In this document: one piece after another, positions 1,227 through 51,577 of the stretch
Layout of the letters: each line of letters begins with the position of its first letter
Position numbering within the stretch: position 1 is the first letter of the stretch
From: a virus
Length of the DNA stretch: 64,000 bases
Virus record (IMG/VR): IMGVR_UViG_3300045988_170943
Span: 32,001-96,000 of that record
Direction: 5' to 3' (one strand)
Translations under genes and position numbers: made by a program
Notes under the pieces: model-generated
Told to the model about the DNA's origin: nothing
What the model saw: the letters and a program-made list of their open reading frames with translations, nothing else
Databases searched by the model: none

Positions 1227-1274
1227 GCGATACGCAGTCGCTATGACGGAAGCAACCCAGATGGAGGTGAACTA
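1227..1274 (-). promoter_or_regulatory. Shared-type extended promoter (AGTTCAC-N11-TTGCTT-N17-TATCGC) on minus strand driving 65-1126
   Basis: Plus strand shows GCGATA...AAGCAA...GTGAACT at 1227-1274, the reverse complement of the recurrent motif. Confidence 0.5.
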
Positions 1275-1630
1275 GGTCACACGGGTTGAGGCGAGCACTA
1301 ACTAGCGACCCAGCGGCACAAGGGCAGTGCGATCAGGAAGGTAGAGGGCCAGGCACACTCACCGACGTCTTTCTCTTTGATGATGCTTGGGTGGGGCGCG
1401 TTCTGGCTGGGCGGTCTGGCACCTGGCACTGTGGGTAGTGGTGTATTCAAGGCGTGTGAGGGGGCGGCGAGAGATATGGGGCTTGCTTTGTGCTTAAGGT
1501 CACGTCATACTCTTGTTGTGTGTTTTCTGCTTGATGGTGTACCGTGTAGGTGAACGTGAGTCATTTAGTATCAGTGCCGAGTGTGTGCGCTGATGCTGGC
1601 TCATCAAGATTTCGAGAAGGAGCAGAAGAG

Positions 1631-1954
1631 ATGAGTAAGAGCGACATTCCTGCTATGTTCTATCGTGTCAAGCGGGTTCTCGCGGACTGTTTTCCTGGGG
1701 CTGAGGTTGAGCACTCCTATGTGCCTGAGAGTCCTGAGAATTATGGCGGCCATACTGCTTCAGTTCGTGATGGCAGGTTCTCTGTTATGGCGGGAGTAAG
1801 TAAGAATTTCGTCGTTGTTCTTTCTGTTTTTTATGTGGGCTATGCTTACAAGGTTACCTCTTCTGCACTTTCAGATCCTTCCAGTAAGGAGATTCGTGAG
1901 TGCCTGGTTGAGTTGTGTACTGAGTCGTTCAGGAAGTACTGCCTGGATCAGTAG
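1631..1954 (+). CDS. hypothetical protein, family C (paralog of 16787-17137)
   Basis: SD gaaggagcagaagag before ATG 1631. Shared R[VI]xxDCxPGA N-terminus and FRKYC/FKKYC C-terminus with 16787-17137. Confidence 0.6.
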   Translation: MSKSDIPAMFYRVKRVLADCFPGAEVEHSYVPESPENYGGHTASVRDGRFSVMAGVSKNFVVVLSVFYVGYAYKVTSSALSDPSSKEIRECLVELCTESFRKYCLDQ

Positions 1955-1977
1955 CGTTTCTTCGAGAGGATAACGGC

Positions 1978-2388
1978 ATGTCTGTTGAGGATTGGGGCGG
2001 GGCTCCGTTTCAGGTTGTAGTGACCTGGGCGTCAGGTGAGCGTGACGTGTACACTTTTGAGGCTAAGAACAGGGACGTTCTTAAGAGGGAGATGCTGCGT
2101 GTGCTTGATGCTGACGTGGACAGTTTTCCTTCTGTGTGGGAGCGTTCTTGCGAGGCTCTTGGAGCCAGGATTGAACCATGTGGTTTTGAGTCAGATCGGG
2201 AGGGCTTTACCATCTCAGTTGACTTGAGTGCTGGTAGTGTTCCTTACGTTCACGGAATGGCGGTTAGATGGGAGTTAGACTGCGAGGTGATCCAGTGGCT
2301 TAACCGACACGATCTCATGGATGCTATGGGTGATGGCTCTGATTTGTTCTGCAATATTGCGGACTACTGGACGGAAAATGGTGAGTAG
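1978..2388 (+). CDS. hypothetical protein
   Basis: 136 aa ORF, SD-like gagagga 9 nt upstream of ATG. Confidence 0.5.
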   Translation: MSVEDWGGAPFQVVVTWASGERDVYTFEAKNRDVLKREMLRVLDADVDSFPSVWERSCEALGARIEPCGFESDREGFTISVDLSAGSVPYVHGMAVRWELDCEVIQWLNRHDLMDAMGDGSDLFCNIADYWTENGE

Positions 2389-2689
2389 TGATCTCGGGCG
2401 TCGTATTGTCACGGCTCGACTAACACCAAGAGCATGCAGTGTCTTTTTGGGGTGCTGAAGGCTGTTCTACACTCTTTGTTCTTGGTGGCGGTTTTGTACT
2501 GCTAATGTCACCCGCCTCTTCACCGGGCGGGCTGGAGAGACATCGGCAGTGGGAGGAGTGCCCCAGCACCATGAGGCCACTCCTCCCACTGCCGCATACT
2601 GGAGGGTGGCGAGTTATGTTTGTGGTGCGGCTCATATGTGTTTAGGGTTGTGCCAGGCGCTTCGGGTGATGTAGTGTTGAGTCGTCAAG

Positions 2690-3391
2690 TTGGGGACCGT
2701 AAGGCCCAGGATGAGAGCAGAGGAAGATAGCATGGACGTCAGGTCCGTTAACATCGACACTCAGGGCGGGTTCGTTACAGGGGTCCAGGATAGTAACTGG
2801 AAGGACATTGACAATCCTCCTGCACACGTCATGGAAGTCGCTTCAGCAGTTAGTAAGGTGACTGACGGGTGGACACAGTTGTCAGTTATTGAGGATTCCG
2901 ACATCCCTTATGTTTTGGCTTTTGTACCCATGAAGACAGTAGGGGTTGTCAGTAAGGAGTTTTACCTGGCAATTGACTGCTATTCCCATGAAAATATTCC
3001 CATCATGATGCATCTTAAAATTGTTCCCGGACCGACTCCCGAACCCGTTATGACCTACACCATGTTACCTGTTGGCGGTGAGTTTGTCAACGTCAAAGGC
3101 GACATTGACCGTCTAGTGCGACGTTTCAGCACTCTGTGGGACATGCAGGAAGTCATGACAGCATCAATTGGTAATGAAGAGATTGTCTTCTTCGACGGTG
3201 AGAACATTGAGAAGATCAAGGTGTACGCCAAGGAGAACTCTCCTGAGGTTATTATCTACCAGGACAACCCTAAGAAGGAGATCATCGACAAGGTTGCTGG
3301 GATCTTCAAGGGTCACACCGTCCATGTGGGGGATGATGGCGTCACTGTACTTCTTGATCTGAAGGAGGACAGTCGTGTTTGTGCTGGGTGA
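2690..3391 (+). CDS. hypothetical protein
   Basis: 233 aa ORF with coding-like composition, preceded by a structured 300 nt intergenic region. Confidence 0.5.
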   Translation: MGTVRPRMRAEEDSMDVRSVNIDTQGGFVTGVQDSNWKDIDNPPAHVMEVASAVSKVTDGWTQLSVIEDSDIPYVLAFVPMKTVGVVSKEFYLAIDCYSHENIPIMMHLKIVPGPTPEPVMTYTMLPVGGEFVNVKGDIDRLVRRFSTLWDMQEVMTASIGNEEIVFFDGENIEKIKVYAKENSPEVIIYQDNPKKEIIDKVAGIFKGHTVHVGDDGVTVLLDLKEDSRVCAG

Positions 3392-4382
3392 GGTCACCAA
3401 GATGATGACACCTGATGACGTGGTGGTTTTCCTTAACAGGGTGACCCGTTATGATCAAATCCCCACTGACATGGATGGTTTGCTTGAGAGTGTTCGTAGT
3501 GGATCCTTGTCGCTGTACAAGTTCGATGAGGATGCCACTCTTATGGTGAACACCGTGAGTCAGTGGTTCGGCGAGGGTGAAATTGTCTCGGTGGTCCTGA
3601 GGACACAGGGTAAGAGGGTTGTTTACACTCTTTCTGAGGTCAACAGTGTCACGGGATCGTCCTTGACGTGGTGGTGGCGACGTTTCAAGACTGCTGACTA
3701 CAGACCGCTTATGGAGGCGGTTGAGCAGGGTAGGGGTATCCAGTACCGTCTGCTTGAGGCACGGGACAACAGGTTCATGGTTCAGGAGGCGGTTCAGGTC
3801 GCCTGGAATACAGCCAGAGAGATTCCAGGCGACTACTCGCTACAGTTCTTCAGGAAAGTGTTTGAAGGCTTTGGAAGTAGCGTAGACATCAGGCCCTTGC
3901 ATACGTGGCAGCCGCTTGATGACTGCGATCCACAGGAATGGAATGACTTTCTTGAGAATGGGGGTGATGTCAGGATCAGAGGCAAGGATACAGTCGTGAG
4001 AGTTGGGGACAAGTTCACTGACGGGCATATCTCCTGGTGGAAGACTCTCATTCAGGGCTCAGATTTACTGAGGGTGCTTCAAGTTGCCAAGGCGAGCGGT
4101 GTGATGTCCTCCCCTGACAGGTTCTCCTACCGCAACCTTTACCGTCATGCCGAGGGATACCGTGAGGACCTATCAGACGTTAGTGCTGCCCGGAATGATG
4201 CTGCGCTCTCCCAGAACGGCCGAGTGCACATTGTTGACATGTTCGTCACAGTAAGGGACGCCAGTCCTGTCGTGTACATGCTGTCGAATCATGGCGGGCG
4301 CTACGACTGGCGGGAGTTCAACGACCTGGGTGTTATCTCTTCTTATCTTCACCGGGTGGGCTGGCGAGACAGTAACCAGTAG
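3375..4382 (+). CDS. hypothetical protein, family A (paralog of 40761-41774 and 41800-42849; distant to family B)
   Basis: GTG start with SD aaggagga. Conserved blocks VYTLSEV...WWW and SGVMSSPxRFxYRxLY...GYREDLSD shared with five other ORFs. Confidence 0.7.
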   Translation: MFVLGEVTKMMTPDDVVVFLNRVTRYDQIPTDMDGLLESVRSGSLSLYKFDEDATLMVNTVSQWFGEGEIVSVVLRTQGKRVVYTLSEVNSVTGSSLTWWWRRFKTADYRPLMEAVEQGRGIQYRLLEARDNRFMVQEAVQVAWNTAREIPGDYSLQFFRKVFEGFGSSVDIRPLHTWQPLDDCDPQEWNDFLENGGDVRIRGKDTVVRVGDKFTDGHISWWKTLIQGSDLLRVLQVAKASGVMSSPDRFSYRNLYRHAEGYREDLSDVSAARNDAALSQNGRVHIVDMFVTVRDASPVVYMLSNHGGRYDWREFNDLGVISSYLHRVGWRDSNQ

Positions 4383-4411
4383 GCCCAGCCGCCCCCATTT
4401 GCGTGTGGTTC

Positions 4412-4460
4412 AGTTCACATGCTCACTGGCTTGCGTGTTCTGTCTTGTTGGGGGTATGGT
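4412..4460 (+). promoter_or_regulatory. Shared-type promoter AGTTCAC-N12-TTGCGT-N18-TATGGT
   Basis: Motif match upstream of the 4513 start. Confidence 0.5.
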
Positions 4461-4512
4461 TGAGTCATCGCCAGAGGGAAGAGCCCGCTGGCAGGACTCG
4501 GAGGAGAGTACT

Positions 4513-4920
4513 ATGGGCCTTAACCACGTGATTATTTCGGGTTGGGTTGTTGCCAACATTACTACTGATGACGCTAATAAGCGGGCGAACGCTTTTCGTG
4601 ACGCCTGCCGGAAGCGTTCCGAGTACGCCCAGATCGATGTTAATGTTGAGGATAAGGGCGGCCTCCCTAGTAGGATCCAGTTTATGGTGACAGGGGACTC
4701 CGATTCCCTGACGGATGACCTTAATGACCTGGTTGAGTCCACTATTACGGCAGGTCTTAACATTCAGGACCATTTTGTTCGGGGAACTTTATCAGTGACA
4801 GATCTTCGTCAGGTCAAGATGGGTGCTATTCCGGCGATGGCGGTCTATGGTTTTGACTTTGATGGTAAGGTTAAGGCTAGGGTTGAGGTATGCCCTAATG
4901 GCAGGGTTATCAGGGACTAG
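4513..4920 (+). CDS. hypothetical protein, family D (paralog of 43574-43987)
   Basis: SD ggaggagag before ATG 4513. Strong similarity (DDLNDLVESTITAGLN / VTDLRQVK) to 43574-43987. Confidence 0.7.
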   Translation: MGLNHVIISGWVVANITTDDANKRANAFRDACRKRSEYAQIDVNVEDKGGLPSRIQFMVTGDSDSLTDDLNDLVESTITAGLNIQDHFVRGTLSVTDLRQVKMGAIPAMAVYGFDFDGKVKARVEVCPNGRVIRD

Positions 4921-4937
4921 TTCTGCGTCCTGTTGTC

Positions 4938-4990
4938 AAACCGCCTTGTGGACAGTGTTGGACTACTGTCCACAAGGCGGTTTCGTTCTT
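4938..4990 (+). terminator. Rho-independent terminator-like hairpin (17 bp stem) plus T-rich tail
   Basis: aaccgccttgtggacag ... ctgtccacaaggcggtt followed by tcgttctt. Confidence 0.55.
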
Positions 4991-5061
4991 GATATGTGTG
5001 TTCAGTGTTTCAGCAGTAGACGTTTTGTTGGACACGAAGAGCACACGCATGGGTGTGGCCT

Positions 5062-5109
5062 GTTTCACTTGCTGCGGGGTTGCGTGGGCTGTTACAGGTG
5101 CTCTAGTAT
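5062..5109 (+). promoter_or_regulatory. Shared-type promoter GTTTCAC-N11-TTGCGT-N18-TAGTAT
   Basis: Motif match upstream of 5165. Confidence 0.5.
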
Positions 5110-5164
5110 TGAGTCATCAGCCAAGGGCAACAGGTCCGAGGCACGAGTCCTATAGGAGGACAAG

Positions 5165-5563
5165 ATGAACGCCATGGCCGCCACCGCCGAGAAGACCACC
5201 ACTATCTCTGTGAATGAGATGCGTGACTATGTTTTGAATGTCGTCAATGGTGACGGTTCTCTTTTCGTCTGGGGGATTATGAACCTTCCCAGCGACATTG
5301 TGCCAGAGTTCGGCATGTACGCTCCGATTGTGGATCAGGGGCGCACGAAGCGCCTTCGGCGAATGACGAAGGAGGAGAACCTGTTCGTTCTCTCTAGCAA
5401 GGAGCGACCTGGCTCAGTCAAGATCGTAGTCAAGAACGCTGATGGTTACTGGAGTGAGCATGGGGCGATTCTGGACCCGGTTCATTTCACCACGGAGGGC
5501 CTGGATGAGGTCTACGACGCCTGGAAGGATGATGCTGATCAGGAGTCCGAGGAGTGGGCGTGA
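5165..5563 (+). CDS. hypothetical acidic protein
   Basis: SD taggagga before ATG, 132 aa. Confidence 0.55.
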   Translation: MNAMAATAEKTTTISVNEMRDYVLNVVNGDGSLFVWGIMNLPSDIVPEFGMYAPIVDQGRTKRLRRMTKEENLFVLSSKERPGSVKIVVKNADGYWSEHGAILDPVHFTTEGLDEVYDAWKDDADQESEEWA

Positions 5564-5884
5564 CTTGTTGCACCCTGTTTCGTTCCTAGTGGGGGGTGGG
5601 CGTAGCCTTCTTGCCCCTGGCAATAAGAGTCGTGGTGGATGGCACGCTGAAGTATGTGTGTCACCTACCACGACTCTTGCGTTCTTCTGGTGGGTGCTTG
5701 CTGGTGTCGTTTCTGGATGCTCTTATGTTGGGGTGCTGTGACTGTCGTATCGGGGCTGCCTCGATGGTTTGTGGATCTGGGGCGGTAGAGAGTCGAGCCT
5801 GTTCTCTCCTGAAGGGGGCAGGAACCAACGAGCGAGACCCGCGGCAGGAACGGGGTGTATCCGTAGCAAGAGAGTGTGTGGCTC

Positions 5885-5932
5885 AGTTCACTCCCCTTTG
5901 AGGTTGTGTGGTCTCGTTCAGGTGCGTATAGT
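5885..5932 (+). promoter_or_regulatory. Shared-type promoter AGTTCAC-N12-TTGTGT-N17-TATAGT
   Basis: Motif match upstream of 5994. Confidence 0.5.
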
Positions 5933-5993
5933 TGTGTCTGCCAGAGAGGAAGAGCGTAAGGCTCTCCTCGCAGATTGAAGGGAAAGAGCAGCA

Positions 5994-6410
5994 ATGACCA
6001 CCAACTCGGTCTATGGGAGCATTGACGCATACATGGATCGCTCTGACCTGAAGCCTCTGATCGACGACCTGATGAGGGCTCTTGGCGCTGGAGCCCAGGT
6101 CACCGTAGAGAAGTACAGGGATCGTCACCATTCTGTCGTGTTCTCTCTGCTGACTGGTGAGGACATTGATCAGGCAGCGGTCATGGATGCTGTTCGCGCC
6201 ATCACGGAGGGCCGGGTTAGCAGGGGTGTCGTGTACTTCGTTGATCTGCGTGGCATGAGGTCAGGCATGTCACCTGAGATCACCTTGTTTGACCTGTCTC
6301 GTTCTTCGAGTGCCGTCGTTGAGGGAACCTGGTTCGGGGTGAGTGCTCAGGCTGAGGACTTTCTTGAGCCGGATTACTCTGTTGTGCACTACAGTGAGAT
6401 GCCCTGGTAA
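5994..6410 (+). CDS. hypothetical protein, family E (paralog of 38565-38966)
   Basis: Shared blocks GxID, MDAVRAI/MRAIQEV, V[YT]FVD[LM]R...P.[IM]T[LV][FY]DL. Confidence 0.6.
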   Translation: MTTNSVYGSIDAYMDRSDLKPLIDDLMRALGAGAQVTVEKYRDRHHSVVFSLLTGEDIDQAAVMDAVRAITEGRVSRGVVYFVDLRGMRSGMSPEITLFDLSRSSSAVVEGTWFGVSAQAEDFLEPDYSVVHYSEMPW

Positions 6411-6560
6411 GGGCTGGTACGTATGGTGTGCGCTTTCGCCATGAAGAATACCATTATCTGGTTCTGCTAGAGGAAGAGGATCATGTTTTCATCGGTTGTG
6501 TCGGCTGGCACTGTTTTTACTCCAGGGGATGGTGCAGGTAGTATTGTCTCTTAATGGGCG

Positions 6561-7028
6561 ATGGTTGTGGTAGCGACTTTAGGTTTTGTCTTTGCTTTGA
6601 TAGCGGTTTTGATTCTTATAGCCGGGCACAAGATTGAGGATCCTAAAGAGAACATGGTGGCCCTTATGACTTTCCTTGCCGTCTTTGTTGCTGCCGACTT
6701 CTGTTTCTCGAGGGCAAGCGTATTCTATCGGCAGTCGTTTCCAGGTGAATCAACTGTTGAGGGCACTGTCGTCAAAGTCATGGACGTTGGGTCTGATGGT
6801 GCCGAACTGCTGTTTGACGACGGCAAGTCGGTGCGCATGTACAATTCGGGGAACGATTTGAAGGACGTTCAGGGTCTAAGAGTTCTTCTGACGTGTGACA
6901 CAAACAAAAACACCAACGACAGTTTCGATGACATCAACAAGTGCGAGTATGAGAAGGTTGTTTCAATTCCTTCCTCCACCCCTAGTGGGAGCAGTGGCGA
7001 GGTTCAGCAAAAGCACAATTCGAACTGA
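6561..7028 (+). CDS. small membrane protein, family F (with 16126-16626 and 40207-40692)
   Basis: Two N-terminal hydrophobic helices. C-terminal domain with conserved L[KT]CD motif as in the other two members. Confidence 0.55.
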   Translation: MVVVATLGFVFALIAVLILIAGHKIEDPKENMVALMTFLAVFVAADFCFSRASVFYRQSFPGESTVEGTVVKVMDVGSDGAELLFDDGKSVRMYNSGNDLKDVQGLRVLLTCDTNKNTNDSFDDINKCEYEKVVSIPSSTPSGSSGEVQQKHNSN

Positions 7029-7171
7029 AGAGAGTAGTGTGCACAGGGTAATTGTGCTTTGCTTCTTTAGGTGCAAAGTAGGTCAAGGTCGCCTTCGTCT
7101 GGTATTAGGTGGTTGGGTTGCCACATATATAGTGGCAACCAGGTCATTCCCCATAATGCCCTGTGTAACCC

Positions 7172-7219
7172 AGTTCACTGATCATCGTGTTGACTTCGTT
7201 CCTGATTCGATCATATACT
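7172..7219 (+). promoter_or_regulatory. Shared-type promoter AGTTCAC-N11-TTGACT-N18-TATACT
   Basis: Motif match upstream of 7272. Confidence 0.5.
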
Positions 7220-7271
7220 TAAACCATCGCAAGACACACAGGGTGACTTGCAGCAATTGTAGGAGATAGAA

Positions 7272-7778
7272 ATGAGTATTGCTGTTGAGACGACTCAGAA
7301 GTTTTTTGAAGGTGTCGAGGAGGCTGCTAAGAACGGACAGGTTTTCAGCCAGGACGCTGGTATTGATGATGGTCTTGTACTGACTGTTAGTCCTGACGGT
7401 GGCGCTGTATGTCACCTTTTCAGAGAGCAGGTGGCTACCCTCCCTGCTGGCAGCACCCCGGATGAGGTGCTTGCCTTCTAGTCTGAGTCTGTCCGCAAGT
7501 TTGCTCCATCCTACAGTGAGGCTGCCGGAACGATGACTTTTGTCAAGGACCTGAGGGTGGGGGATGTCATTGTTGACGAGGACGGCCTGAACGCTAAGGT
7601 CGTCTGCACGCTCGGCGGTGATCCTACCTATGTGACGCTTATCTCCCACGGATATATTACTGCTAGAAATTATGACGGTAAGCAGATCCAGAAGTTTCGG
7701 GAATACCCTGAGGGCAGTATGAAGGCTGTTGATCTACTGTGGGCCTCTGACGGCGACATCCTCTATCAGAACGACTAA
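7272..7778 (+). pseudogene. Family G gene interrupted by a single in-frame TAG (7479-7481); encodes two ORFs of 69 aa (7272-7481) and 81 aa (7533-7778) that correspond to the N- and C-halves of the intact paralog 48227-48706
   Basis: 7272 and 7533 are in the same frame and no other stop lies between them. The paralog has Tyr at the TAG position (EILNYYSTSIRQ vs EVLAF*SESVRK). Confidence 0.6.
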
Positions 7779-7809
7779 CCCACCAAATTCTGGCCTCATA
7801 GGCTTCCTA

Positions 7810-7866
7810 CCCCTGTGCCAGGCGCGCAACTCACTTTACGTGCGCGCCTGGCACAGGGTTTTATTG
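7810..7866 (+). terminator. Rho-independent terminator (18 bp stem, TTTTATT tail)
   Basis: cccctgtgccaggcgcgca ... tgcgcgcctggcacaggg then ttttattg. Confidence 0.6.
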
Positions 7867-8005
7867 TGGCGGGCCATCATGTCCGGGTACTGGATACCTG
7901 TTGCTACAGGCGGTTAGTGTGGCGTTGACGTGTCTTGCCTCGTGTGGTATGGTTAGTGCTGACAACTATAGTGAAACCATGTGCTAGGAAGGCAGAGGTG
8001 CGTGT

Positions 8006-8170
8006 ATGGATGCTGCTGATGTTCAGAATGTCCTTGAGGGCGTTCTTAGGGATGCTTACAAGAACAAGAATCTTGACCGTGAACTTATCGAAGTGGTAAG
8101 TTACCTTATTGAGATGATTGTGAGTGGGGCGATGGAGCCTGTTCTTGACTATGACGGCTACTACGACTAA
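8006..8170 (+). CDS. small hypothetical protein (54 aa), not in ORF track
   Basis: TTGACG-N17-TATGGT promoter about 50 nt upstream, ATG at 8006, coding-like composition. Confidence 0.35.
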   Translation: MDAADVQNVLEGVLRDAYKNKNLDRELIEVVSYLIEMIVSGAMEPVLDYDGYYD

Positions 8171-8234
8171 GTATAGGCAGAGCAGTGTGTAGCGCAGAGA
8201 ATCCTGAGGCGGAAGAAGGGTTAAGGTACAGGGG

Positions 8235-43305: not shown

Positions 43306-43341
43306 CAGCCCACACAAGTCACCACAACAGGTGGCAAGAGT

Positions 43342-43389: not shown

Positions 43390-43573
43390 TCCATCATGGT
43401 CGCAATAAGCCCCTAGAGCAGAGGACACAAGACGGCTTATTAGCCCGTCGCCTCAACCAGCAATGTGTCCCACTTCATTTCTTCTCATGTTGACAACAGT
43501 CGCCCTGTGTGCATATATTTGAAGTACGTTTAAGGGAGCACCGGCTACATTGAAAGACCCCAAGGAGAAGAAG

Positions 43574-43987: not shown

Positions 43988-44057
43988 GTACCCCACGATC
44001 GTTATCATCTTGCTCGTGGGGTACTTGCTCGTATCCCTAACACAGTAGACGTGACCT

Positions 44058-44105
44058 GGTTCACACTGTAGCGTGTTGACTACCTCTCCTCCTATCATGT
44101 AGGGT
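44058..44105 (+). promoter_or_regulatory. Shared-type promoter GGTTCAC-N11-TTGACT-N18-TAGGGT
   Basis: Motif match upstream of 44162. Confidence 0.5.
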
Positions 44106-44161
44106 GGAGACACAAGCCAGGAACAACAGGGTTGCTGGCGAATACGCACAAGGAGTCGGAA

Positions 44162-44749: not shown

Positions 44750-44862
44750 GAGGCCACGTAAACTACTCACCCCAGGATCCTCTAGGCACAGGAGAGGATC
44801 CTGGGGTGGGCTTTGTCCGTGAAGAAGGCTGCGGGCGCTCTACCATCAGGGTAGTGTGTCGC

Positions 44863-44909
44863 AGTTCACTCGACTGGAAGTTGCCCCTAGCGCTGGGAGC
44901 ATGTAGTAT
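44863..44909 (+). promoter_or_regulatory. Shared-type promoter AGTTCAC-N11-TTGCCC-N17-TAGTAT
   Basis: Motif match upstream of 44965. Confidence 0.5.
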
Positions 44910-44964
44910 GATGTTCAGAAGTCAGGGGACAAAAGGTCTCATGACAAAACGCGAAGGAGACAAC

Positions 44965-45372
44965 ATGAGCAAGACTGTCACTGAGATTGTTAAGGCCGTC
45001 GCTGAGAATGGACTGGATGCCACTTTCGGCACTACTAACGCCGCTATCGATAATGGCTGGTATGACTGGTTTTGTCAGGACCGCTCACTGAAGAACAGGT
45101 CAAAGAAGTTCATGACCATTCTCAATCGGCTTACTAATGGCGGCAAGGTCAGCCTGGATGGTGAGGTTACCTTCCTGAACAAGTACGCAGAGCATCTGTT
45201 CGATGTCATGATTCTAGAGTCCACTGAGGGCACCATTTTTGTCGAGAATGACCCTCAGGAACATGGGGCGCGTTGGGCTGTTAAGGTGAACGGAAACCAC
45301 CCCACTGAGGGGTTCCTGAAGTTCGACAGTGTTCATGGCCTTGTTGCGTGGCTGAACGAGCCCTGGGGCTAA
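44965..45372 (+). CDS. hypothetical protein, family I
   Basis: SD gaaggagacaac before ATG. Paralog of 20101-20757. Confidence 0.65.
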   Translation: MSKTVTEIVKAVAENGLDATFGTTNAAIDNGWYDWFCQDRSLKNRSKKFMTILNRLTNGGKVSLDGEVTFLNKYAEHLFDVMILESTEGTIFVENDPQEHGARWAVKVNGNHPTEGFLKFDSVHGLVAWLNEPWG

Positions 45373-45432
45373 CTCGCTCTTACGGAGAGGTAAGAGCGCA
45401 GTATCTCACCCCTTCCTTGCAGGGAAGCGTAT

Positions 45433-45478
45433 GCAGTGCCGTACAGTTGACTATATGAGTTGACTGTACGGCACTGCT
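45433..45478. terminator. Near-perfect 19-20 bp hairpin with 6 nt loop in a 270 nt intergenic spacer
   Basis: gcagtgccgtacagttgact / agttgactgtacggcactgc. Confidence 0.4.
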
Positions 45479-45645
45479 GTCGCTGATGTTGAGTTTCCCT
45501 GCTAGATTTGACGCATCGGAGGGCGGTGGGTACGAGTGTGGCCTATTTCACTAGAGTCAACATTGATCATGTCTCACGGGTGGTGCTATGCTCATACCAG
45601 ATGCCAAGAACAAGAGGTTGTTGGCCAATATTTGAAGGAGTCACA

Positions 45646-46155
45646 ATGTCCGCCACTATCAAGCCCGCCACCAAGTACATTACCTCCAATGAGGCAATCT
45701 GTGAGGAAAACGTGGTAGAGAAGGGTGACTGGGCTGACTTCCTTGAATCATCCATTAAGGGAATGCACGTGACCGATGTGTACGTGACTACCCGTAAGGC
45801 CGCCCACAATAAGTGCCCTCAGGGAATTGACTGTGATGACTCGAACGAGGGTGACTCTGCGGTAGTCATTGAGGGTCCCGTGAACCGTGTTGTTCTGCTT
45901 GGTCACTCTGCCCCCGATTTTGACAACGATGTCAAGTTGAATGTGCTCAGTTACGACAACTCCGACAAGAGGGTGAACAGTGTGTCCATTGAGGGCATCA
46001 ACACCTACTGGTTCACACAGGGCACTGAGGGCGGAGAGTACTACACCGTCAAGATCGGCCGCCACAATTCGCCTATTATCATTGAGGTCCTGACCTACTC
46101 CGACTCCCTCGGTGATGTGGGCGTGCCATACATTGTGGTCCAGGACGCCCGCTGA
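45646..46155 (+). CDS. hypothetical protein
   Basis: SD gaaggagtcaca before ATG 45646. Confidence 0.55.
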   Translation: MSATIKPATKYITSNEAICEENVVEKGDWADFLESSIKGMHVTDVYVTTRKAAHNKCPQGIDCDDSNEGDSAVVIEGPVNRVVLLGHSAPDFDNDVKLNVLSYDNSDKRVNSVSIEGINTYWFTQGTEGGEYYTVKIGRHNSPIIIEVLTYSDSLGDVGVPYIVVQDAR

Positions 46156-46170
46156 TAAGCCACTAACTGT

Positions 46171-46217
46171 CGCCCTGGCATGAGGTTCTACCGTTCATGC
46201 CAGGGCGGCTTTATTTA
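46171..46217 (+). terminator. Rho-independent terminator
   Basis: cgccctggcatga ... tcatgccagggcg then gctttattta. Confidence 0.6.
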
Positions 46218-46254
46218 CCGCTGTCAGAGTTCACGCAAAACATGACTGTGGCCC

Positions 46255-46302
46255 AGTTCACATGTTTACCAGTTGCGCATGTTCAAGGTCATGCCGTATG
46301 CT
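46255..46302 (+). promoter_or_regulatory. Shared-type promoter AGTTCAC-N11-TTGCGC-N18-TATGCT (second AGTTCAC copy at 46228-46234)
   Basis: Motif match upstream of 46341. Confidence 0.5.
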
Positions 46303-46340
46303 TACACCATCAAAGGAAACAAACACAAAGGAGGATAGCC

Positions 46341-46751
46341 GTGAGCGCGCCCCTGGATCTCACCACCTACTTCACCAGCCCGAACACGGACAGTGGTGAG
46401 AAGTTCACTTATGAGAGTGAGATCGCTCTTGGATTAACTAGGGCCGCTGGGAAGTTCTCTTCCATCAGCGGTGAGGTTCTGACTGCTATCAAGCGTCTGG
46501 CTCACGAGGCTGGCAGTCACGTGACCATCCTCAACCCTCCGTCGTCTTTGCTTTCACGTGAGCACCCGCTCATTGTTGCTATTGGGTTCGAGGTGGTAGA
46601 GATTCACCTGGATTACGGACGCATCCAGGTGAACGTGCTCGAAGGCTGGCAGGACGTTCACGCCAACCTCGCTGGGTACACGACGTATGTCCAGTCCGAG
46701 GCGTGGAAGAGCCTGGGTGAGCACATGGCCCATATGGTCCACTGGCAGTAG
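46341..46751 (+). CDS. hypothetical protein (GTG start)
   Basis: SD caaaggaggatagcc before GTG. Confidence 0.5.
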   Translation: MSAPLDLTTYFTSPNTDSGEKFTYESEIALGLTRAAGKFSSISGEVLTAIKRLAHEAGSHVTILNPPSSLLSREHPLIVAIGFEVVEIHLDYGRIQVNVLEGWQDVHANLAGYTTYVQSEAWKSLGEHMAHMVHWQ

Positions 46752-46920
46752 CCATCACGGATGATACGACTGGGGTGGGCGCGTTTGGTATGAAGAACGT
46801 GCCCACCCCGGTTCTCCTTGTCTTCTTGCCACGCTCGCACTATCGTCAACACGCCTCTTAGTCTGATCAACCAGCAGCAGCACCCCATGAAGCACGCTAT
46901 CTGCCTGTAGAGTGAGACTC

Positions 46921-46967
46921 AGTTCACACATAGCGGGGTTGCAGTCTGCCGCGGCAACCTGTACGCT
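46921..46967 (+). promoter_or_regulatory. Shared-type promoter AGTTCAC-N11-TTGCAG-N17-TACGCT
   Basis: Motif match upstream of 47018. Confidence 0.55.
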
Positions 46968-47017
46968 TAAACCATCAGGAACACGACGGCGATTACCGCC
47001 AGAACGGAGACAGACAG

Positions 47018-47506
47018 ATGAGCATCAATCTTGTTGCCAACATGGTTATTGGCAAACGCGAGACTGTCAACATTCTCAACCCCGACGAGAATGAGAGTTG
47101 GGTTTCTTTCCGCCGCGCCGAGTTCAATTTCGACTCCGTGAGCGACTTTATTACCGTGGTTAAGAGGTTGTTCCTCATGGATCACCCTCACTCCGATCTT
47201 CTGATGAACGAGCGTGACAGGGAGGCGGTTCGTATCCCTACTTTCCTCCAGGTCGCTGAGGATCTTGGTGCGGAGGTTGAAGATGTTGAGCGACCTGGTG
47301 ACAGGGATTGTCTGTCTGGTGGGTTCGGGGACGATGCCGCGATCCTGTTTGGTGGAACCGTCTTCCCTGACGAGGACAACACCTACCTGGCTCTTTTCGG
47401 CAGTTCAGCATCCGGGGACCGGAAGTGGCCAGGCCACAAAGACGTGGTAGATGCTGTTAGGGGAGGCTTCGTCGCCCAGGAGGCCAAGAACCTGGGAATC
47501 AAGTAG
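47018..47506 (+). CDS. hypothetical protein
   Basis: 162 aa ORF after the promoter. Confidence 0.55.
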   Translation: MSINLVANMVIGKRETVNILNPDENESWVSFRRAEFNFDSVSDFITVVKRLFLMDHPHSDLLMNERDREAVRIPTFLQVAEDLGAEVEDVERPGDRDCLSGGFGDDAAILFGGTVFPDEDNTYLALFGSSASGDRKWPGHKDVVDAVRGGFVAQEAKNLGIK

Positions 47507-47531
47507 AAGTACGTTAACCCTAGGGTGGTGT

Positions 47532-47579
47532 ACTTCACATGACCTTGGGTTGCTTCACCTGGTAGGGGTGACATATACT
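47532..47579 (+). promoter_or_regulatory. Shared-type promoter ACTTCAC-N11-TTGCTT-N18-TATACT
   Basis: Motif match upstream of 47634. Confidence 0.5.
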
Positions 47580-47633
47580 AGAGTCATGACAGGGAGCAAT
47601 AAGAGCGCTCTGACTAGATAGAAAGGCTCAGTT

Positions 47634-48014
47634 ATGTCAGGCTTCTTCCGTAAGGCCCAGGCAGAGTCGGAGATTGATACGGTTATGCGTAACGTCTGTG
47701 ACGCCTTCCGTGATGAGTTCAATGTGGAGCCATCCATCTCTGACGATAGTGCACCCTTCTCCTTCCGTGCGTACCACTTTGACGCGCGTTGCAAACACCT
47801 TGTTATCGCCCGTCGAGTCATTGATCACTGGGTGATTGATGTTGCTCTTCAGATCCCTCGCAAGGATGAGATTCTTAAGGGACAGTCAACCACTACTGAT
47901 GTATCCTATGGTGGGGTCAAGGCGGCCATCTCGAACGCTCTCTACCATGGGGTCGTTGTGGATCGTATCAGCGGTGAGGTTATTCGTCGTCTCGGACACA
48001 GGCGCTCCGCCTGA
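47634..48014 (+). CDS. hypothetical protein
   Basis: 126 aa ORF. Confidence 0.5.
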   Translation: MSGFFRKAQAESEIDTVMRNVCDAFRDEFNVEPSISDDSAPFSFRAYHFDARCKHLVIARRVIDHWVIDVALQIPRKDEILKGQSTTTDVSYGGVKAAISNALYHGVVVDRISGEVIRRLGHRRSA

Positions 48015-48226
48015 CAGTTTCTACACATAAACAACAGGTGTATGTGACGTGGATCGTTCGGTTTCATGCAGGCCGCCCACCAATACCGTCGCTCGCAGTG
48101 GGGTGCTGTTGTTGCACACATCACTACCACCTAAGTTGAATGACCTCTTGTGGTCGTGTACACTGAAAGCACCTAAGGGCAGAAGGCGGGCAGGGCCGAC
48201 TGCAAGACGAACAGGAAGAGAAGACC

Positions 48227-48706
48227 ATGATGGACGCGAAGGGCTTCATCAACAAGATCGAGCAGGCCATGAAGAACGGTGAGACCTTTACTCACGCTGT
48301 TGGCAGTTACGGCAGTTTTGAAGTCACTGTTTCCCCTGATGGTAGTGCAGTGTGCAAGTTGGAGGACGAAGAGCACAGTACTCTTCCTGCCGGTAGCAGC
48401 CCGGAAGAGATCCTTAACTACTACTCAACAAGTATCCGCCAGTCGTCCTACTCTTACGACACTGAGGGTGGAGGGTCCGTGACCTTTGTGAAGGACCTCC
48501 AGGTCGGCGACGTCATTCTCTACAGCCTGCATGGCGACGGGAACGCTAAGGTTGTCTCTGTAGACACGACTGACAGTGAGATCGTTGTGACTTTCGTTGT
48601 CCATTCTCCTGGCAGGACGTGGAAGCAGGTTGATACCTACCCTGCCGGGTCTATGATGGAGTTCGATCTCCTTTGGGGGGCTGACTGGGTTCCTGAGGAG
48701 AAGTAG
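48227..48706 (+). CDS. hypothetical protein, family G, intact fused form (N-half ~7272-7481 product, C-half ~7533-7778 product)
   Basis: SD gaacaggaagagaagacc. Collinear similarity to both halves of the interrupted locus. Confidence 0.65.
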   Translation: MMDAKGFINKIEQAMKNGETFTHAVGSYGSFEVTVSPDGSAVCKLEDEEHSTLPAGSSPEEILNYYSTSIRQSSYSYDTEGGGSVTFVKDLQVGDVILYSLHGDGNAKVVSVDTTDSEIVVTFVVHSPGRTWKQVDTYPAGSMMEFDLLWGADWVPEEK

Positions 48707-48882
48707 TATCCGGTTGAGGTCTTGTACTTGTGGGGGCAAGAAGATCCCGTTACCACAAGCACAAGACGCCCCAGTTCTCCTATCGATTTCAAGTGGCATG
48801 AAGTGAACGCGGCTCTCATTAGTGCCCCATTGTGAAACATTTTCCGCATTCTCACTAAAAAATAGGACAGGAGAAGATAGTT

Positions 48883-49359
48883 ATGGCTGAGATCTTCGTC
48901 AAGGATATGTACGCATTCGCTAAGGGCGTCACCTTCAACAGGGACACCAACGGGTTGCACTATCGTCCAACCCTGGCGCTACAGAGGTATCTGAGTGGCC
49001 CCAGTAGCCCGATCCTTATTAGTCCTGACAATTACAGGATTGTTTTCGGGAAGAAGATGTTCTCCATCACGGACGTCTCTGGTATGGCTGGCGCCGGAAT
49101 CAACCATGGTGACACTTTTGACATCGTGTTCCAGATTGATCCCGTATCGCACTACAACAACATCTCTGATGGTGCTTTTGAGGCCGTCAAGAGGGACCTC
49201 TGGTACTTGGCCCGCTGGTTTGAGATGAGCCCGGATGAGGCCAAGAAGATCGATGCAGAGATCGCCAAGGATAATGAGATGAGTCTAGATGGCCTCAACT
49301 CTGTTCTTCAGGCCTGGGGTTTGGCGCCTGTCCCTCAGTCCAAGACATTCAACCTGTGA
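48883..49359 (+). CDS. hypothetical protein
   Basis: SD aggagaagatagtt before ATG. Confidence 0.55.
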   Translation: MAEIFVKDMYAFAKGVTFNRDTNGLHYRPTLALQRYLSGPSSPILISPDNYRIVFGKKMFSITDVSGMAGAGINHGDTFDIVFQIDPVSHYNNISDGAFEAVKRDLWYLARWFEMSPDEAKKIDAEIAKDNEMSLDGLNSVLQAWGLAPVPQSKTFNL

Positions 49360-49515
49360 GTTCGCAAACACTATCCTTGATCAGACACCCCTTTTCTGTC
49401 GCTATGTGACCGGTTACACATCATAGAAAGACATGCATTAGGTGGAAGTGCTCTACAATGATCACGTGAGCAGTCACTCATACTTGTCATTCAAGACCAC
49501 TCACACTCAACGCAA

Positions 49516-50199
49516 ATGAAGGAGAACAGGATCGTGCCCCCAGAAGGACTCACGCCCCTATCTATCAGCGAGTTCGCAGCCAAGTACGGCCCCATCATGG
49601 AGATTGTTGGGATGAGCCGTCAAGGAGTGAAAGACATCCTTGCTATGGCATATGGTGTGTTTCCGTCTCCAGGGAATGGGTACAACGTTACCAGTACTGG
49701 AATTGTTGCGTCCGCTTTCCAGGAGTCTTCTCTGCCTCTTTTGCACCGTCGTCGTCAGGTGTCTGCCACTACGATTTTCAATGCCACTGTTGGGGCATCG
49801 GGTAGGCAGGGTCAGTGGGGTTTCACTATGCAGCAGCACGGCCGCAGAATCATGGCGGCTATCTCTAACCGTGATGGCTGGTTCAAGGTCATGGATGATG
49901 GCCCTGGCTTCAAGTACTATCATGCAGTTAGTGGGGTGAAGTGGGCCGACACCCCGATTCACTACAATAGTGGCGTCAGATCTTCCCGCAATGAGCCTGT
50001 TTTCCTTGATGGCATTCGAGAGATGATTGAGGAGTTGCAGCACATTGTCGCATTAAGGCCTACCATCCCTGAAACCGGGCGAAAGGCGAGACTGTTCTCC
50101 AAGTCCCCAAACGGTTCCCTACTGGACATGCGTGTGCTCAACAACCCCAACATCTGGCAGGAGACACAGAGCAAGGGAGAGGCCGATCAGCAGGAGTAG
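49516..50199 (+). CDS. hypothetical protein (possible GTG start at 49534)
   Basis: 227 aa ORF; aaggagaac lies inside the first codons, suggesting the downstream GTG. Confidence 0.5.
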   Translation: MKENRIVPPEGLTPLSISEFAAKYGPIMEIVGMSRQGVKDILAMAYGVFPSPGNGYNVTSTGIVASAFQESSLPLLHRRRQVSATTIFNATVGASGRQGQWGFTMQQHGRRIMAAISNRDGWFKVMDDGPGFKYYHAVSGVKWADTPIHYNSGVRSSRNEPVFLDGIREMIEELQHIVALRPTIPETGRKARLFSKSPNGSLLDMRVLNNPNIWQETQSKGEADQQE

Positions 50200-50322
50200 G
50201 GCATTCTTCTAGCGTGTGACTAGCATTACTGGGTTCCAGGTTGAAGATGCTGCTGTTGTGTCATAGCCTGGTGACAGGTTGACCAAAGAGCGGAAGACAC
50301 TAACACGGAAAGAGAAGCCACG

Positions 50323-51423
50323 ATGACAGTCAAGATTAATGACGCCAAGTATAAGGTGCTCGGCATGCTGGCCGAGATCTCCGATGACGAGTTCACCAGG
50401 TGGAGTGAGAAGCAACTTCATGCCGTCCAGCGCAGCATCATTGAGCGAGTGTCTTCTGGCCCTGAGAAGATCAAGGGCTTCAACAAGAGGATCACCGATC
50501 TCTTCAACAAGGCATCCTATGTCAACAATAACGTGGTTTGCTACGTTGCTGTTGACGACGAGGAAGAGATCATCCTCTACTCTCTCGCCAAGACTTCAGC
50601 AAATAGTTTTGACCGCCACGAGTACGACACGTTCGGCTGGGACTTGGACACACTGAGCCATGACGATGACAGGATTGAGAACGTTGAAGTTCTTGCCGAT
50701 GTTATTGACAAGGCTAATGACCTTCGACGCAATTTCTTGCAGGCGACCGGCAGTCGTTTCGAGACCTGGAACGCATGTCAGGACCTTTGGGTCACCTGCT
50801 ACATAGCGAACGAGCAAATTTCTATGGCTGCCCAGCAGATGCATGACTTCATCGACCAGATCATGAGTTTCGTTCTTGGTGAGACGGGCTCTTTCAAGCC
50901 TAAGAAGGATCCCATCGGTGAGATTGAGTACTGGTTCTATGACGGGGGAACCATCTCTATCAAGAACGGGTACTACACTGAAACCTACAAGGTAGGCCCC
51001 CAGTACTTTGACGGTATCAAGACCTCCTGGATTTATCGGGCTAATGCCGTGGGACTCTCTGGGGATGCGGCTGATCTGATGAACGACATCCTTAAGAGCG
51101 GTGTCATGGCCTCCACAGAGAAGTTCGACTACTCGGAAGTGTACTCCCAATTCCCCGGGTACAGTAAGGAACTGACTGATCTGAGCAAGATGCAGGACGA
51201 CAAGACCTTCAACTATGGTGGAGACACTGACATCATTGACGGTTTCGTTATCGCCGACGAGGTGAAGAACGTTGACGACTCCTGGGCCCACGCTAGCGGC
51301 TACTACTCCGTAGCGGTCCTGTCTCGAAGCATCGACGAGGACACCTACTCCTGGAAGGAAATCTACGACTGGGGTGAGGTGTATGATTATCTCGTTCGGG
51401 CAGGCATGAAGGTCGAAGAGTGA
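50323..51423 (+). CDS. hypothetical protein, family B (with 54757-55854 and 56838-57881; distantly related to family A)
   Basis: Shared C-terminal core SGVM[AS].....F.Y...Y.....G[FY]....[LP]SD with family A. Confidence 0.65.
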   Translation: MTVKINDAKYKVLGMLAEISDDEFTRWSEKQLHAVQRSIIERVSSGPEKIKGFNKRITDLFNKASYVNNNVVCYVAVDDEEEIILYSLAKTSANSFDRHEYDTFGWDLDTLSHDDDRIENVEVLADVIDKANDLRRNFLQATGSRFETWNACQDLWVTCYIANEQISMAAQQMHDFIDQIMSFVLGETGSFKPKKDPIGEIEYWFYDGGTISIKNGYYTETYKVGPQYFDGIKTSWIYRANAVGLSGDAADLMNDILKSGVMASTEKFDYSEVYSQFPGYSKELTDLSKMQDDKTFNYGGDTDIIDGFVIADEVKNVDDSWAHASGYYSVAVLSRSIDEDTYSWKEIYDWGEVYDYLVRAGMKVEE

Positions 51424-51529
51424 GAACGCTAGCGCGATGTAAGGGCCACTTGTATCTGCGTGTCAGGCAGATCTCAAAGAAGTAAGAGGTCACCTGAACG
51501 GCAGCAGGCGACGAAGGACTTTGTGACTC

Positions 51530-51577
51530 ACTTCACTAGCCTCATGGTTGATCGGCCGTGAAGGTTGTGTCTATACT
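51530..51577 (+). promoter_or_regulatory. Shared-type promoter ACTTCAC-N11-TTGATC-N18-TATACT
   Basis: Motif match upstream of 51616. Confidence 0.5.

Follow-up and report, generated by a model that had tools for sequence, protein, structure and literature searches.

Why does the same promoter-like layout return in front of dozens of small genes within a single stretch of viral DNA? In order to answer this question, we analyzed 64,000 nt of the IMG/VR virus record IMGVR_UViG_3300045988_170943 (positions 32,001 to 96,000 of the record, hereafter the window), in which a first-pass annotation had noted the heptamer AGTTCAC at a fixed distance upstream of sigma70-like −35 and −10 hexamers. We consider it reasonably likely that a single promoter-leader cassette of ~110 bp has been repeated here, and that each copy drives the transcription of its own small ORFan gene for a soluble protein. 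The region concerned is hyperplastic, probably serves early functions or host takeover, and belongs to an uncultivated jumbo-phage-like genome. The motif, its spacing, its conservation, the covariation of a hairpin in the leader and the genomic context are direct observations.

The recurrence of the layout upstream of genes turned out to be stronger than first claimed. AGTTCAC occurs in 32 copies in the 64-kb window (11.3 expected) and the exact combination AGTTCAC-N11-TTG in 16 (0.27 expected), a number that none of 100 shuffled sequences reached. A position weight matrix (PWM) of 31 columns, trained on 25 sites and used with a cut-off of at least 10 bits, gave 42 matches in the window vs. 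2.6 in shuffled sequence, and a composite scan for the upstream dyad, with the −35 allowed at N10–12 and TAnnnT at 16–19 nt, returned 40 sites. Nearly all of the latter are intergenic (38 of 40), though 76% of the window is coding, and their orientation (33 on the plus and seven on the minus strand) tracks that of the genes. The gap between TTCAC and TTG is N11 in 33 sites, N12 in six and N10 in one, and 37 of the 40 sites lie 74–140 nt upstream of a start codon on the same strand (median 103, interquartile range 100–107). All 23 positions that had been listed as strong were recovered, while the weaker ones divided: those at 37.78, 48.1 and 56.73 kb are degenerate copies, and at 8.0, 15.08, 54.13 and 58.8 kb a sigma70-like core is present but no upstream element was convincing. 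About a dozen further sites were absent from that list (9154, 21836, 28986, 32119, 43472, 45545, 50223, and 51931 on the plus strand; 21778, 26970, 28012, and 36788 on the minus strand). The dense cluster ends at ~52 kb, and in the 8 kb flanking the window on either side there are no more than one or two weak matches; in total, ~84 kb of a genome of ~420 kb were read. The cumulative GC skew climbs almost monotonically over positions 1–64,000 (0.12 to 1.86), in parallel with the excess of plus-strand genes.

The heptamer, initially described as an invariant free-standing or UP-like element, proved to be the promoter-proximal arm of a 16-bp palindrome. When the sites were aligned, conservation ran 8 bp further upstream, giving tGTGaCCyAGTTCACa. 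Because the right arm had served to pick the sites, they were re-ascertained by the core alone (TTG-N20–22-TAnnnT, 25–100 nt from a start codon), which picked out 51 of the 95 genes with 53 cores in all; the complete palindrome re-emerged in this set at −26 to −11 from TTG, with equally informative arms. The invariant part of the right arm in weaker copies is TCAC (AGATCAC, GCATCAC, ATGTCAC), and the element is therefore TGTGA-N6-TCACA, which occurs 24 times in the window with at most one mismatch vs. 4.0 ± 2.1 expected. The flanks of the palindrome (TGTGACCYAGTTCACA) have no AT bias, the block is GC-neutral, and the sequence between the conserved blocks is random (partly in the N6, and in the N10–11 gap and the −35/−10 spacer). 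Some promoters have a second dyad (e.g., 9085–9100, 61 bp upstream of the cassette dyad at 9146), and two pairs of divergent cassettes stand back to back, at 21677–21909 (dyads 58 bp apart, 21778 minus and 21836 plus) and at 37625–37898 (43 bp apart, 37735 minus and 37778 plus). AGTTCAC was rejected as an UP element because the block is palindromic and not AT-rich; a sigma54 promoter (TGGCAC-N5-TTGC, wrong spacing), an extracytoplasmic function-type −35/−10 pair (the 11-bp gap is too short) and a lac-type operator (the lac form is TGTGA-N4-TCACA) were likewise tried and discarded.

The cassette consensus has the 16-bp inverted repeat of CRP/FNR-family sites. The ideal E. coli CRP site is TGTGATCTAGATCACA, with which the consensus TGTGACCTAGTTCACA agrees at 14 of 16 positions. 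As in CRP/FNR promoters (E. coli CRP class I/II, GlxR, Vfr, SyCRP1), the TGTGA-N6-TCACA operator keeps a constant, stereospecific distance to a core of the sigma70 type, although here ~40 near-consensus sites are crowded into 50 kb of a mobile genome and do not form a dispersed chromosomal regulon. Measured from the predicted start, the palindrome is centred at −53.5 where the spacer has 17 nt or at −54.5 where it has 18 nt, and spans −46 to −62, in line with the original reading of a fixed element placed where an activator would sit. No precedent was found in the literature on CRP boxes at phage early promoters.

Downstream of the palindrome, the core is of the sigma70 type, as had been described: TTG(C/A), which is part of an extended −35 block gGTTGC/A, is followed by TAnnnT after 18 nt in 26 of the 40 sites and after 17 nt in 12. 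Behind the −10 stands nnnnnCAUCA(A/G), in which the C-A 6–7 nt past the hexamer is likely the −1/+1 of the transcript, as predicted from the −10 and the conserved CA. Related genomes provided a test of conservation: an IMG/VR relative of 394,300 bp (contigs L003 and L006) has ~85% DNA identity and carries cassettes at orthologous positions, while a more divergent IMG/VR lineage of 398,101 bp is represented by L016 (IMGVR_UViG_3300045988_154284, 46% GC) and the short contig L012 (43% GC). Across 27 orthologous cassette pairs pooled from four related contigs, with a background intergenic identity of 0.78, identity was 0.96 for GTG and 0.89–1.0 for TTCAC of the palindrome (T2, T3, and A5 0.96–1.0), 1.0 for GTTGC, 1.0 for TA and 0.93 for the last T of the −10, and 0.93–1.0 for CATC at the start, vs. 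0.63–0.7 at the non-motif positions within the cassette. Judged from these alignments, exactly the motif-defining positions are under purifying selection and, since the motif is spared while the gaps are substituted, the comparison argues for selection on function and not for recent copying. The divergent lineage has the same architecture (TGTGATTCAGTTCAC-N11-TTGCGC-18-TATGCT with a leader hairpin at L016 18118, minus strand; dyad TGTGAacagcaTCAC at L012 3002), with half-sites and spacing retained and the central six bases drifting, a pattern that a dimeric helix-turn-helix protein reading TGTGA/TCACA would impose.

The transcribed part of the cassette holds another conserved element. Leaders, first given as 40–110 nt, are mostly 44–57 nt long, and most of them contain a hairpin of 23–25 nt that begins at +4 to +8 of the predicted RNA and was seen on ~20–25 separate transcripts. 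It is bipartite, with an outer stem of 3–5 bp, an internal loop of 1–2 nt, an inner stem of 3–5 bp and an AAnAG pentaloop closed by C-G. The stems vary in sequence among copies yet remain complementary: 64% of the cells were paired in a plain MAFFT alignment vs. 52% after shuffling (reached in 0 of 500 shuffles) and 41% when the partner was slid by one column, and double changes were found in eight of nine pairs. The mean folding energy over 36 sites (26-nt windows) is ~−3 kcal in the background and dips sharply to −6.6 kcal at +58 from the A of AGTTCAC; the hairpin is followed by a purine-rich, unstructured AGGAG ribosome site, and because the folding energy over this Shine-Dalgarno region is merely −1.2 kcal, the site appears to be kept open. 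All matches of a covariance model (CM) with E < 0.1 in the 153 kb searched lay 53–58 nt downstream of a dyad, including matches outside the training set (L003 12755 and 13657, L006 10759 on the minus strand), while a loose hairpin descriptor gave 119 matches vs. 98 in shuffles, with no overall enrichment, and is informative by position only. Neither the Rfam scan nor the tRNA scan returned a match in the window; by eye, the leaders showed no boxA-like sequence, nor any conserved block besides the hairpin and the Shine-Dalgarno sequence, though no formal search was made. Lambda-type nut/boxB hairpins have a GNRA-like, purine-rich pentaloop (GAAAA/GAAGA) near the 5′ end of the two early transcripts, and ompA-type hairpins are 5′-terminal stabilizers. 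The cassette hairpin is similarly short, with a purine-rich pentaloop, and starts 4–8 nt from the RNA 5′ end like the stabilizers, but it differs from boxB in its bipartite stem, its loop C[AAnAG]G and its presence on ~20–25 transcripts rather than two.

At the other end of the transcription units, hairpins of at least 13 bp (up to 26 bp, at most one mismatch) stand 3′ of 35 genes, which bears out the remark that genes are often hairpin-terminated. For some 30 of the gene-end hairpins, the folding energy lies between −28 and −45 kcal; T-rich tails accompany ~17 of 57 hairpins of at least 9 bp, and most long hairpins have no clear U-tract. Several overlap the dyad, −35 or spacer of the next promoter (4401–4438, 19266–19302, 32094–32151, 47506–47536), and three long, perfect ones are bidirectional, terminator-like and common to convergent genes (12722–12771, 32872–32907, 55974–56022). 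The statement that nearly every gene forms its own unit was, by contrast, too strong: a full cassette was found at 36 of the 74 genes between 4.4 and 52.3 kb, and the remaining ones either begin less than 60 nt behind the preceding gene, in short operons, or are preceded by core-only promoters.

By exact look-up, the window proteins occur on metagenomic contigs of 0.2–1 Mb, including one of 420,306 bp and ENA ERZ27262911 k119_16908 (418,686 bp); at least 214 related contigs exist. By coordinate arithmetic, the end of the latter (418,686) corresponds to window position ~37,666 and its start (1) to ~39,168; the window thus bridges both ends, which implies a circular or circularly permuted genome. 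A segment of about 1.5 kb (window positions about 37,667–39,167) is absent from k119_16908, which ends inside the leader of the cassette 37625–37743. Runs of the ERR5894xx series belong to a Chinese oral/gut cohort that yielded numerous jumbo phages of the mouth (preprint 10.1101/2020.07.06.186817); two runs carrying the window genome, ERR589474 and ERR589661, are numbered close to them, and the genome probably comes from the human mouth. Among 50,697 GenBank phage records, megablast and tblastn detected nothing similar at the nucleotide or protein level, apart from weak matches of TnpB. An exact-pattern scan of IMG/VR retrieved one true relative and two chance matches in contigs of 40% GC, and single-sequence and profile protein searches returned the narrow lineage only (12 clusters each). 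Among 95 crude gene calls, Pfam significance was reached by three TnpB genes and a CAAX protease only; PHROGs added one RNA ligase match for these proteins and a few matches in the flanks, and both databases gave almost nothing, and no regulator, for 20 proteins encoded in the flanks and in a further region. The guess of a phage early or moron regulon agrees with what was found, i.e., an IMG/VR-listed viral genome of ~420 kb with small, individually promoted ORFan genes.

The products of the cassette genes differ from the other proteins in that a hydrophobic or transmembrane segment (19-mer) is predicted in one of 36, vs. 17 of 59. Most of the small membrane proteins are thus encoded by genes that have no cassette, e.g., at 34269–34857, 35093–35647, 54221–54532, and 59026–59535. 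Many window genes form divergent paralogue families, the largest of which has six members of 335–366 amino acids with 20–47% mutual identity, restricted to this phage lineage (3375–4382, 40761–41774, 41800–42849, 50323–51423, 54757–55854, 56838–57881); its AlphaFold2 model is confident (predicted local distance difference test 83.5, predicted template modelling score 0.77) but had no match in the PDB at E < 0.1 with Foldseek.

We propose that a host sigma70-type RNA polymerase would use the core promoter of the cassette, as most jumbo phages depend on the host polymerase (PMC13282480). A dimeric helix-turn-helix protein of CRP/FNR-type specificity, either a host CRP homologue or phage-encoded, would bind the palindrome at −53.5/−54.5 and contact the polymerase at a rigid distance, so that ~40 promoters could be switched together. 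This protein would most likely act as an activator, as the entire palindrome is situated upstream of the −35. The 5′ hairpin may stabilize the mRNA or serve an RNA-binding regulator as a common handle, and the long gene-end hairpins may insulate the transcription units from each other. Promoter activity, start site, activation as opposed to repression, the nature of the protein that binds and what the hairpin does are the part of this scheme that we infer.

Several points weigh against it. The start site was predicted from the −10 and the conserved CA, promoter activity likewise being a prediction, and the genome-wide distribution of the motif was judged from ~84 of ~420 kb. With TTGAC/TTGC and TAnnnT, the core matches the consensus fairly well, and an activator may therefore be dispensable. 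No CRP/FNR, helix-turn-helix or sigma protein was found among the 95 window proteins, even at E < 0.05, and the centre of the palindrome at −53.5/−54.5 from the predicted start departs from −41.5 (class II) and from −61.5 and further helical repeats (class I), from which E. coli CRP activates at real sites of the TGTGA-N6-TCACA form (PMC6050953); for this reason, we speak of promoters with a CRP-type operator and do not file them as CRP-dependent promoters. The viral status relies on the IMG/VR listing and a few PHROG matches, no viral hallmark gene was seen in the ~84 kb read, and two scans of 185,579 reference genomes, one with the 366-amino-acid protein and then one with a TnpB alignment, found no relative from which a host could be named.

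The strongest alternative would be that the palindrome is a repressor operator, of a phage shut-off/lysogeny type or recognized by a host protein, which silences all cassette promoters together, for instance the early genes later in infection. A palindromic 16-mer is typical of dimeric helix-turn-helix repressors, the core (TTGAC/TTGC, 17–18 nt, TAnnnT), all of it under selection, seems competent alone, and the second upstream dyad at some promoters (9085 + 9146) would permit cooperative binding. We nevertheless hold repression to be unlikely, as the site at −46 to −62 is off the −35, −10 and start, where simple repressors usually act, and the rigid distance to the −35 (N11 in 33 of 40) favours a stereospecific contact with the polymerase. 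A broader extension of the activator scheme, in which some 40 or more near-ideal CRP-type sites would couple the takeover genes to the cyclic AMP/CRP-family nutritional signal of the host and, after replication, could titrate that regulator off the promoters of the host, and in which the AAnAG hairpin would be a boxB-like tag read by one phage RNA-binding protein to antiterminate across the strong hairpins between genes, or to stabilize or silence early mRNAs together, is speculative and, in our judgement, distinctly unlikely.

The cassette could also be mainly a recombination or mobility module in the style of PeSL (early promoter stem-loop) elements or morons, with a likeness among copies that stems from recent duplication or gene conversion and no dedicated DNA-binding regulator. 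Many cassette genes are paralogous, the leaders of the paralogues 10160 and 12338 are near-identical, and shuffling mediated by PeSL was shown in T4-type phages (PMC2839356). L016 is moreover a mosaic in which blocks 70–90% identical to window 32.8–37.7 kb and 51.5–55.9 kb lie within 16 kb, interleaved with unrelated genes, and in which the window blocks 51.5–52.2, 54.7–55.9, and 32.8–37.7 kb are ordered differently; the first nucleotide of one of the blocks is also that of a dyad (L016 5260 = window 51522), and a break between the window and L003 falls inside the cassette 51923–52033. This arrangement indicates heavy module shuffling in the cassette region. On the other hand, most breaks fall away from cassettes, at gene or TnpB borders, the sequence between the conserved blocks is random, substitutions between orthologues pile up in the gaps and spare the motif, and hairpin stems change sequence while keeping their pairing; mobility as the main role is thus very unlikely, and cassette-wise shuffling is probably a by-product, compatible with the regulated-cassette scheme as a secondary consequence. 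Highly improbable is a phage-encoded sigma factor or RNA polymerase that reads the AGTTCAC/GGTTGC blocks with coincidental sigma70-like hexamers, even if jumbo phages without their own polymerase often encode sigma homologues (PMC13282480) and the GGTTGC block is longer than a plain −35, because AGTTCAC and TTG are 11 bp apart and too near for a −35/−10 pair, the upstream block is palindromic, unlike a sigma-type element, the skeleton TTG-N20/21-TAnnnT with CA at +1, including the canonical hexamers, is best conserved, and no sigma-like protein was found in the window; the dedicated alternative sigma that had been suggested is unlikely on the same grounds.

Among described systems, the PeSL cassettes of T4-type phages come closest, each a sigma70 early promoter with a stem-loop; the element is present in ~50 copies in hyperplastic ORFan regions and has been implicated in modular shuffling (Arbiol et al. 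2010, PMC2839356; Comeau et al. 2014, PMC4122927). Both systems have dozens of intergenic cassettes of ~100 bp with a sigma70-like promoter and a stable stem-loop, directly 5′ of ORFans in hyperplastic regions, with an own promoter and terminator per gene. The counterpart of the PeSL stem-loop is found in the 35 gene-end hairpins, for which termination is predicted, and the stem-loop overlaps the promoter in some window copies, such as those named above. The differences are that PeSL has an AT-rich UP-like tract upstream of the −35, whereas the window has a GC-neutral, transcription-factor-type palindrome of 16 bp at a fixed distance; that a conserved 5′-leader hairpin with a conserved loop is added; that the genome is of ~420 kb, with no similarity detected to T4-type phages or any other phage in GenBank; and that cassette-mediated recombination is only hinted at in this lineage (one block start at a dyad, one break in 51923–52033). 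The first three of these are the new elements relative to known systems. Late promoters of P2 and P4 offer a further comparison, as they are served by Ogr/Delta, small phage activators that contact the polymerase and bind a dyad TGT-N12-ACA near −55 at a handful of promoters with a poor −35. The two share a phage regulon with a dyad at ~−55 upstream of a sigma70 core at each promoter, but the arms in the window are TGT-N10-ACA and thus not of the P2 type, the −35 is well conserved, and ~40 promoters are involved.

Nearly all of this genome is dark matter, and the cassette belongs to the little of its logic that can be read. It delimits a presumably co-regulated set of ~40 ORFan genes for soluble proteins, good candidates for a part in host takeover or anti-defence. 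A regulator would be expected to recognize a single DNA-binding site (TGTGA-N6-TCACA at −54) and a single RNA element. This would open a route to the regulator and perhaps to the host, which should have a CRP-type protein unless the phage encodes it. In addition, the PeSL idea would be extended from T4-type phages of 170–250 kb to an unrelated lineage of ~420 kb, with a transcription-factor site replacing the UP element.

Table 1. Promoter-leader cassettes and gene-end hairpins in the window (window coordinates; sequence elements are listed in the order dyad, gap, −35, spacer, −10)
Feature	Position	Strand	Gene	Sequence elements	Remarks
Cassette-dense zone	2621..52033	.			~50 kb of small ORFan genes, mostly plus strand; 40 composite sites
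Dyad with core	1253..1281	-		TGTGACCTAGTTCACC + N11 + TTGCTT + 17 + TATCGC	PWM 34.8; no open reading frame start within 140 nt
Degenerate cassette	2621..2710	+	2711-3391	TGTGGTGCGGCTCATA, N12, TAGTGT	
Cassette	4404..4512	+	4513-4920	TGTGGTTCAGTTCACA, N12/18/TATGGT	Leader hairpin 4466-4496, CM 24.5 bits
Cassette	5054..5164	+	5165-5563	TGTGGCCTGTTTCACT	Leader hairpin 5116-5146, CM 22.5 bits
Cassette	5877..5993	+	5994-6410	TGTGGCTCAGTTCACT, N12/17/TATAGT	
Cassette	7164..7271	+	7272-7481	TGTAACCCAGTTCACT, TTGACT-18-TATACT	Leader hairpin 7225-7256
Cassette	9146..9257	+	9258-9890		Second dyad 9085-9100; non-training CM match 9209-9240
Cassette	10046..10159	+	10160-10534	TGTGACCTACTTCACT	Leader hairpin 10111-10141, CM 25.3 bits
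Cassette	10656..10770	+	10771-11151	TGCGACCTAGTTCACT	Leader hairpin 10720-10751
Cassette, short leader	11332..11417	+	11418-11966	TGTATTCCAGTTCACA, TTGACT-18-TATGGT	
Cassette	12225..12337	+	12338-12694	AGTGACCCAGTTCACG	Leader hairpin 12288-12319
Cassette, longer leader	16654..16786	+	16787-17137	TGTGTCATGGTTCACA	
Cassette	17194..17304	+	17305-17811	TGTGGGCCAGTTCACA	Leader hairpin 17258-17289
Cassette	19251..19363	+	19364-19945	TGTGCCCCAGTTCACA	Leader hairpin 19314-19344, CM 27.3 bits (best match)
Weak cassette	21677..21786	-	21344-21676	TATGGTGCGCATCACA	Back to back with 21828..21909
Cassette, short leader	21828..21909	+	21910-22431	TATGACCCATGTCACT	
Cassette	23884..23991	+	23992-24153	TGTGGCATAGTTCACA	Leader hairpin 23946-23977
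Cassette	25833..25941	-	25173-25832	TGTGGCCCAGTTCACT	Top PWM score, 37.2; leader hairpin 25848-25878
Cassette	26881..26978	-	26059-26880	TATGTTCTAGTTCACA, TTGACA	
Weak cassette, long leader	27873..28020	-	27585-27872	TGTGCGGCAGATCACT	
Cassette	28141..28251	+	28252-28656	AGTGACCCTGTTCACA	
Cassette	28978..29095	+	29096-29605	TGTGTTCCAGATCACA	
Cassette	32111..32256	+	32257-32853	TGTGATCTGTTTCACC	Dyad and −35 within the 26-bp terminator stem 32094-32151
Cassette	36680..36796	-	35990-36679	AGTGATCTGGTTCACT	
Cassette	37625..37743	-	36926-37624	TGTGACCCGCTTCACT	Back to back with 37770..37898
Weak cassette	37770..37898	+	37899-38546	TGTGCCCCATGTCACC, N12	
Cassette	39038..39146	+	39147-39527	TGTGAGCCAGTTCACT	Leader hairpin 39100-39131
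Cassette	42852..42963	+	42964-43305	AGTGACTCAGTTCACA	Leader hairpin 42916-42947; kept in L003
Cassette, short leader	43464..43549	+	43550-43987	TGTGTCCCACTTCATT, TTGACA	
Cassette	44050..44161	+	44162-44749	CGTGACCTGGTTCACA	Leader hairpin 44112-44143
Cassette	44855..44964	+	44965-45372	TGTGTCGCAGTTCACT	Leader hairpin 44918-44949
Cassette	45537..45645	+	45646-46155	TGTGGCCTATTTCACT, TTGATC	PWM 22.9; leader hairpin 45599-45630, CM 26.1 bits
Cassette	46247..46340	+	46341-46751	TGTGGCCCAGTTCACA	
Cassette	46913..47017	+	47018-47506	TGAGACTCAGTTCACA	
Cassette	47524..47633	+	47634-48014	GGTGGTGTACTTCACA	
Weak cassette	48110..48226	+	48227-48706	TGTTGCACACATCACT	
Variant	49405..49533	+	49534-50199	TGTGACCGGTTACACA, CATGCA, TACAAT	Perfect-type dyad, weak −35
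Weak cassette	50215..50322	+	50323-51423	TGTGACTAGCATTACT, TTGAAG	PWM 12.9; kept in L003 and L013
Cassette	51522..51615	+	51616-51927	TGTGACTCACTTCACT	Homology with divergent lineage L016 begins at the first base
Cassette	51923..52033	+	52034-52210 (58 amino acids)	TGTGACCCACTCCACC	Directly upstream of TnpB element
Variant	56484..56584	-	56058-56483	TGTGTTATAGGTCACA + N13 + TTGACG	
Weak cassette	56730..56837	+	56838-57881	TATGATCAGTGTCACT, N12	
Hairpin, 22 bp	4935..4986	+	3′ of 4513-4920		Terminator-like
Hairpin, 23 bp	5624..5679	+	3′ of 5165-5563		
Hairpin, 19 bp	7809..7860	+	3′ of 7533-7778		
Hairpin, 22 bp	10548..10601	+	3′ of 10160-10534		T-rich tail
Hairpin, 19 bp	11163..11210	+	3′ of 10771-11151		
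Bidirectional hairpin, 19-21 bp	12722..12771	.	Between convergent 12338-12694 and 12833-13252		
Hairpin, 19 bp	17858..17901	+	3′ of 17305-17811		
Hairpin, 19 bp	19962..20011	+	3′ of 19364-19945		
Hairpin, 18 bp	25115..25155	-	3′ of 25173-25832		
Hairpin, 15 bp	26013..26054	-	3′ of 26059-26880		
Hairpin, 26 bp	32094..32151	+	3′ of 31562-32050		Overlaps dyad and −35 of the next cassette
Bidirectional hairpin, 13 bp	32872..32907	.	Between 32257-32853 and 32965-33759		
Hairpin, 16 bp	36883..36922	-	3′ of 36926-37624		T6 tail
Hairpin, 16 bp	39553..39597	+	3′ of 39147-39527		
Hairpin, 16 bp	43985..44027	+	3′ of 43550-43987		
Hairpin, 18 bp	44766..44810	+	3′ of 44162-44749		
Hairpin, 20 bp	45433..45477	+	3′ of 44965-45372		
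Hairpin, 16 bp	46169..46209	+	3′ of 45646-46155		T-rich tail
Hairpin, 20 bp	46766..46815	+	3′ of 46341-46751		
Bidirectional hairpin, 18-19 bp	55974..56022	.	Between 54757-55854 and 56058-56483		

Three copies of a TnpB-only element of ~1.58 kb, which has no TnpA, were found in the window (13343–14862, minus; 52220–53795, plus; 62062–63639, minus), with a protein identity of 76–79%, and a fourth copy is located elsewhere in the 394-kb relative (L006 1772–3331). The nearest TnpB proteins of plasmids and phages are 25–32% identical and mostly haloarchaeal, a likeness that is uninformative on the host. Homology between the copies begins ~40 nt before the start codon and ends just past the stop codon (...AAGGAATAGTCATAC), and the C-terminal ~100 residues are rich in K, R and P, as if they overlapped an omega-RNA scaffold. 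At the place of the 52-kb copy, the relatives L003 and L013 have two cassette genes.

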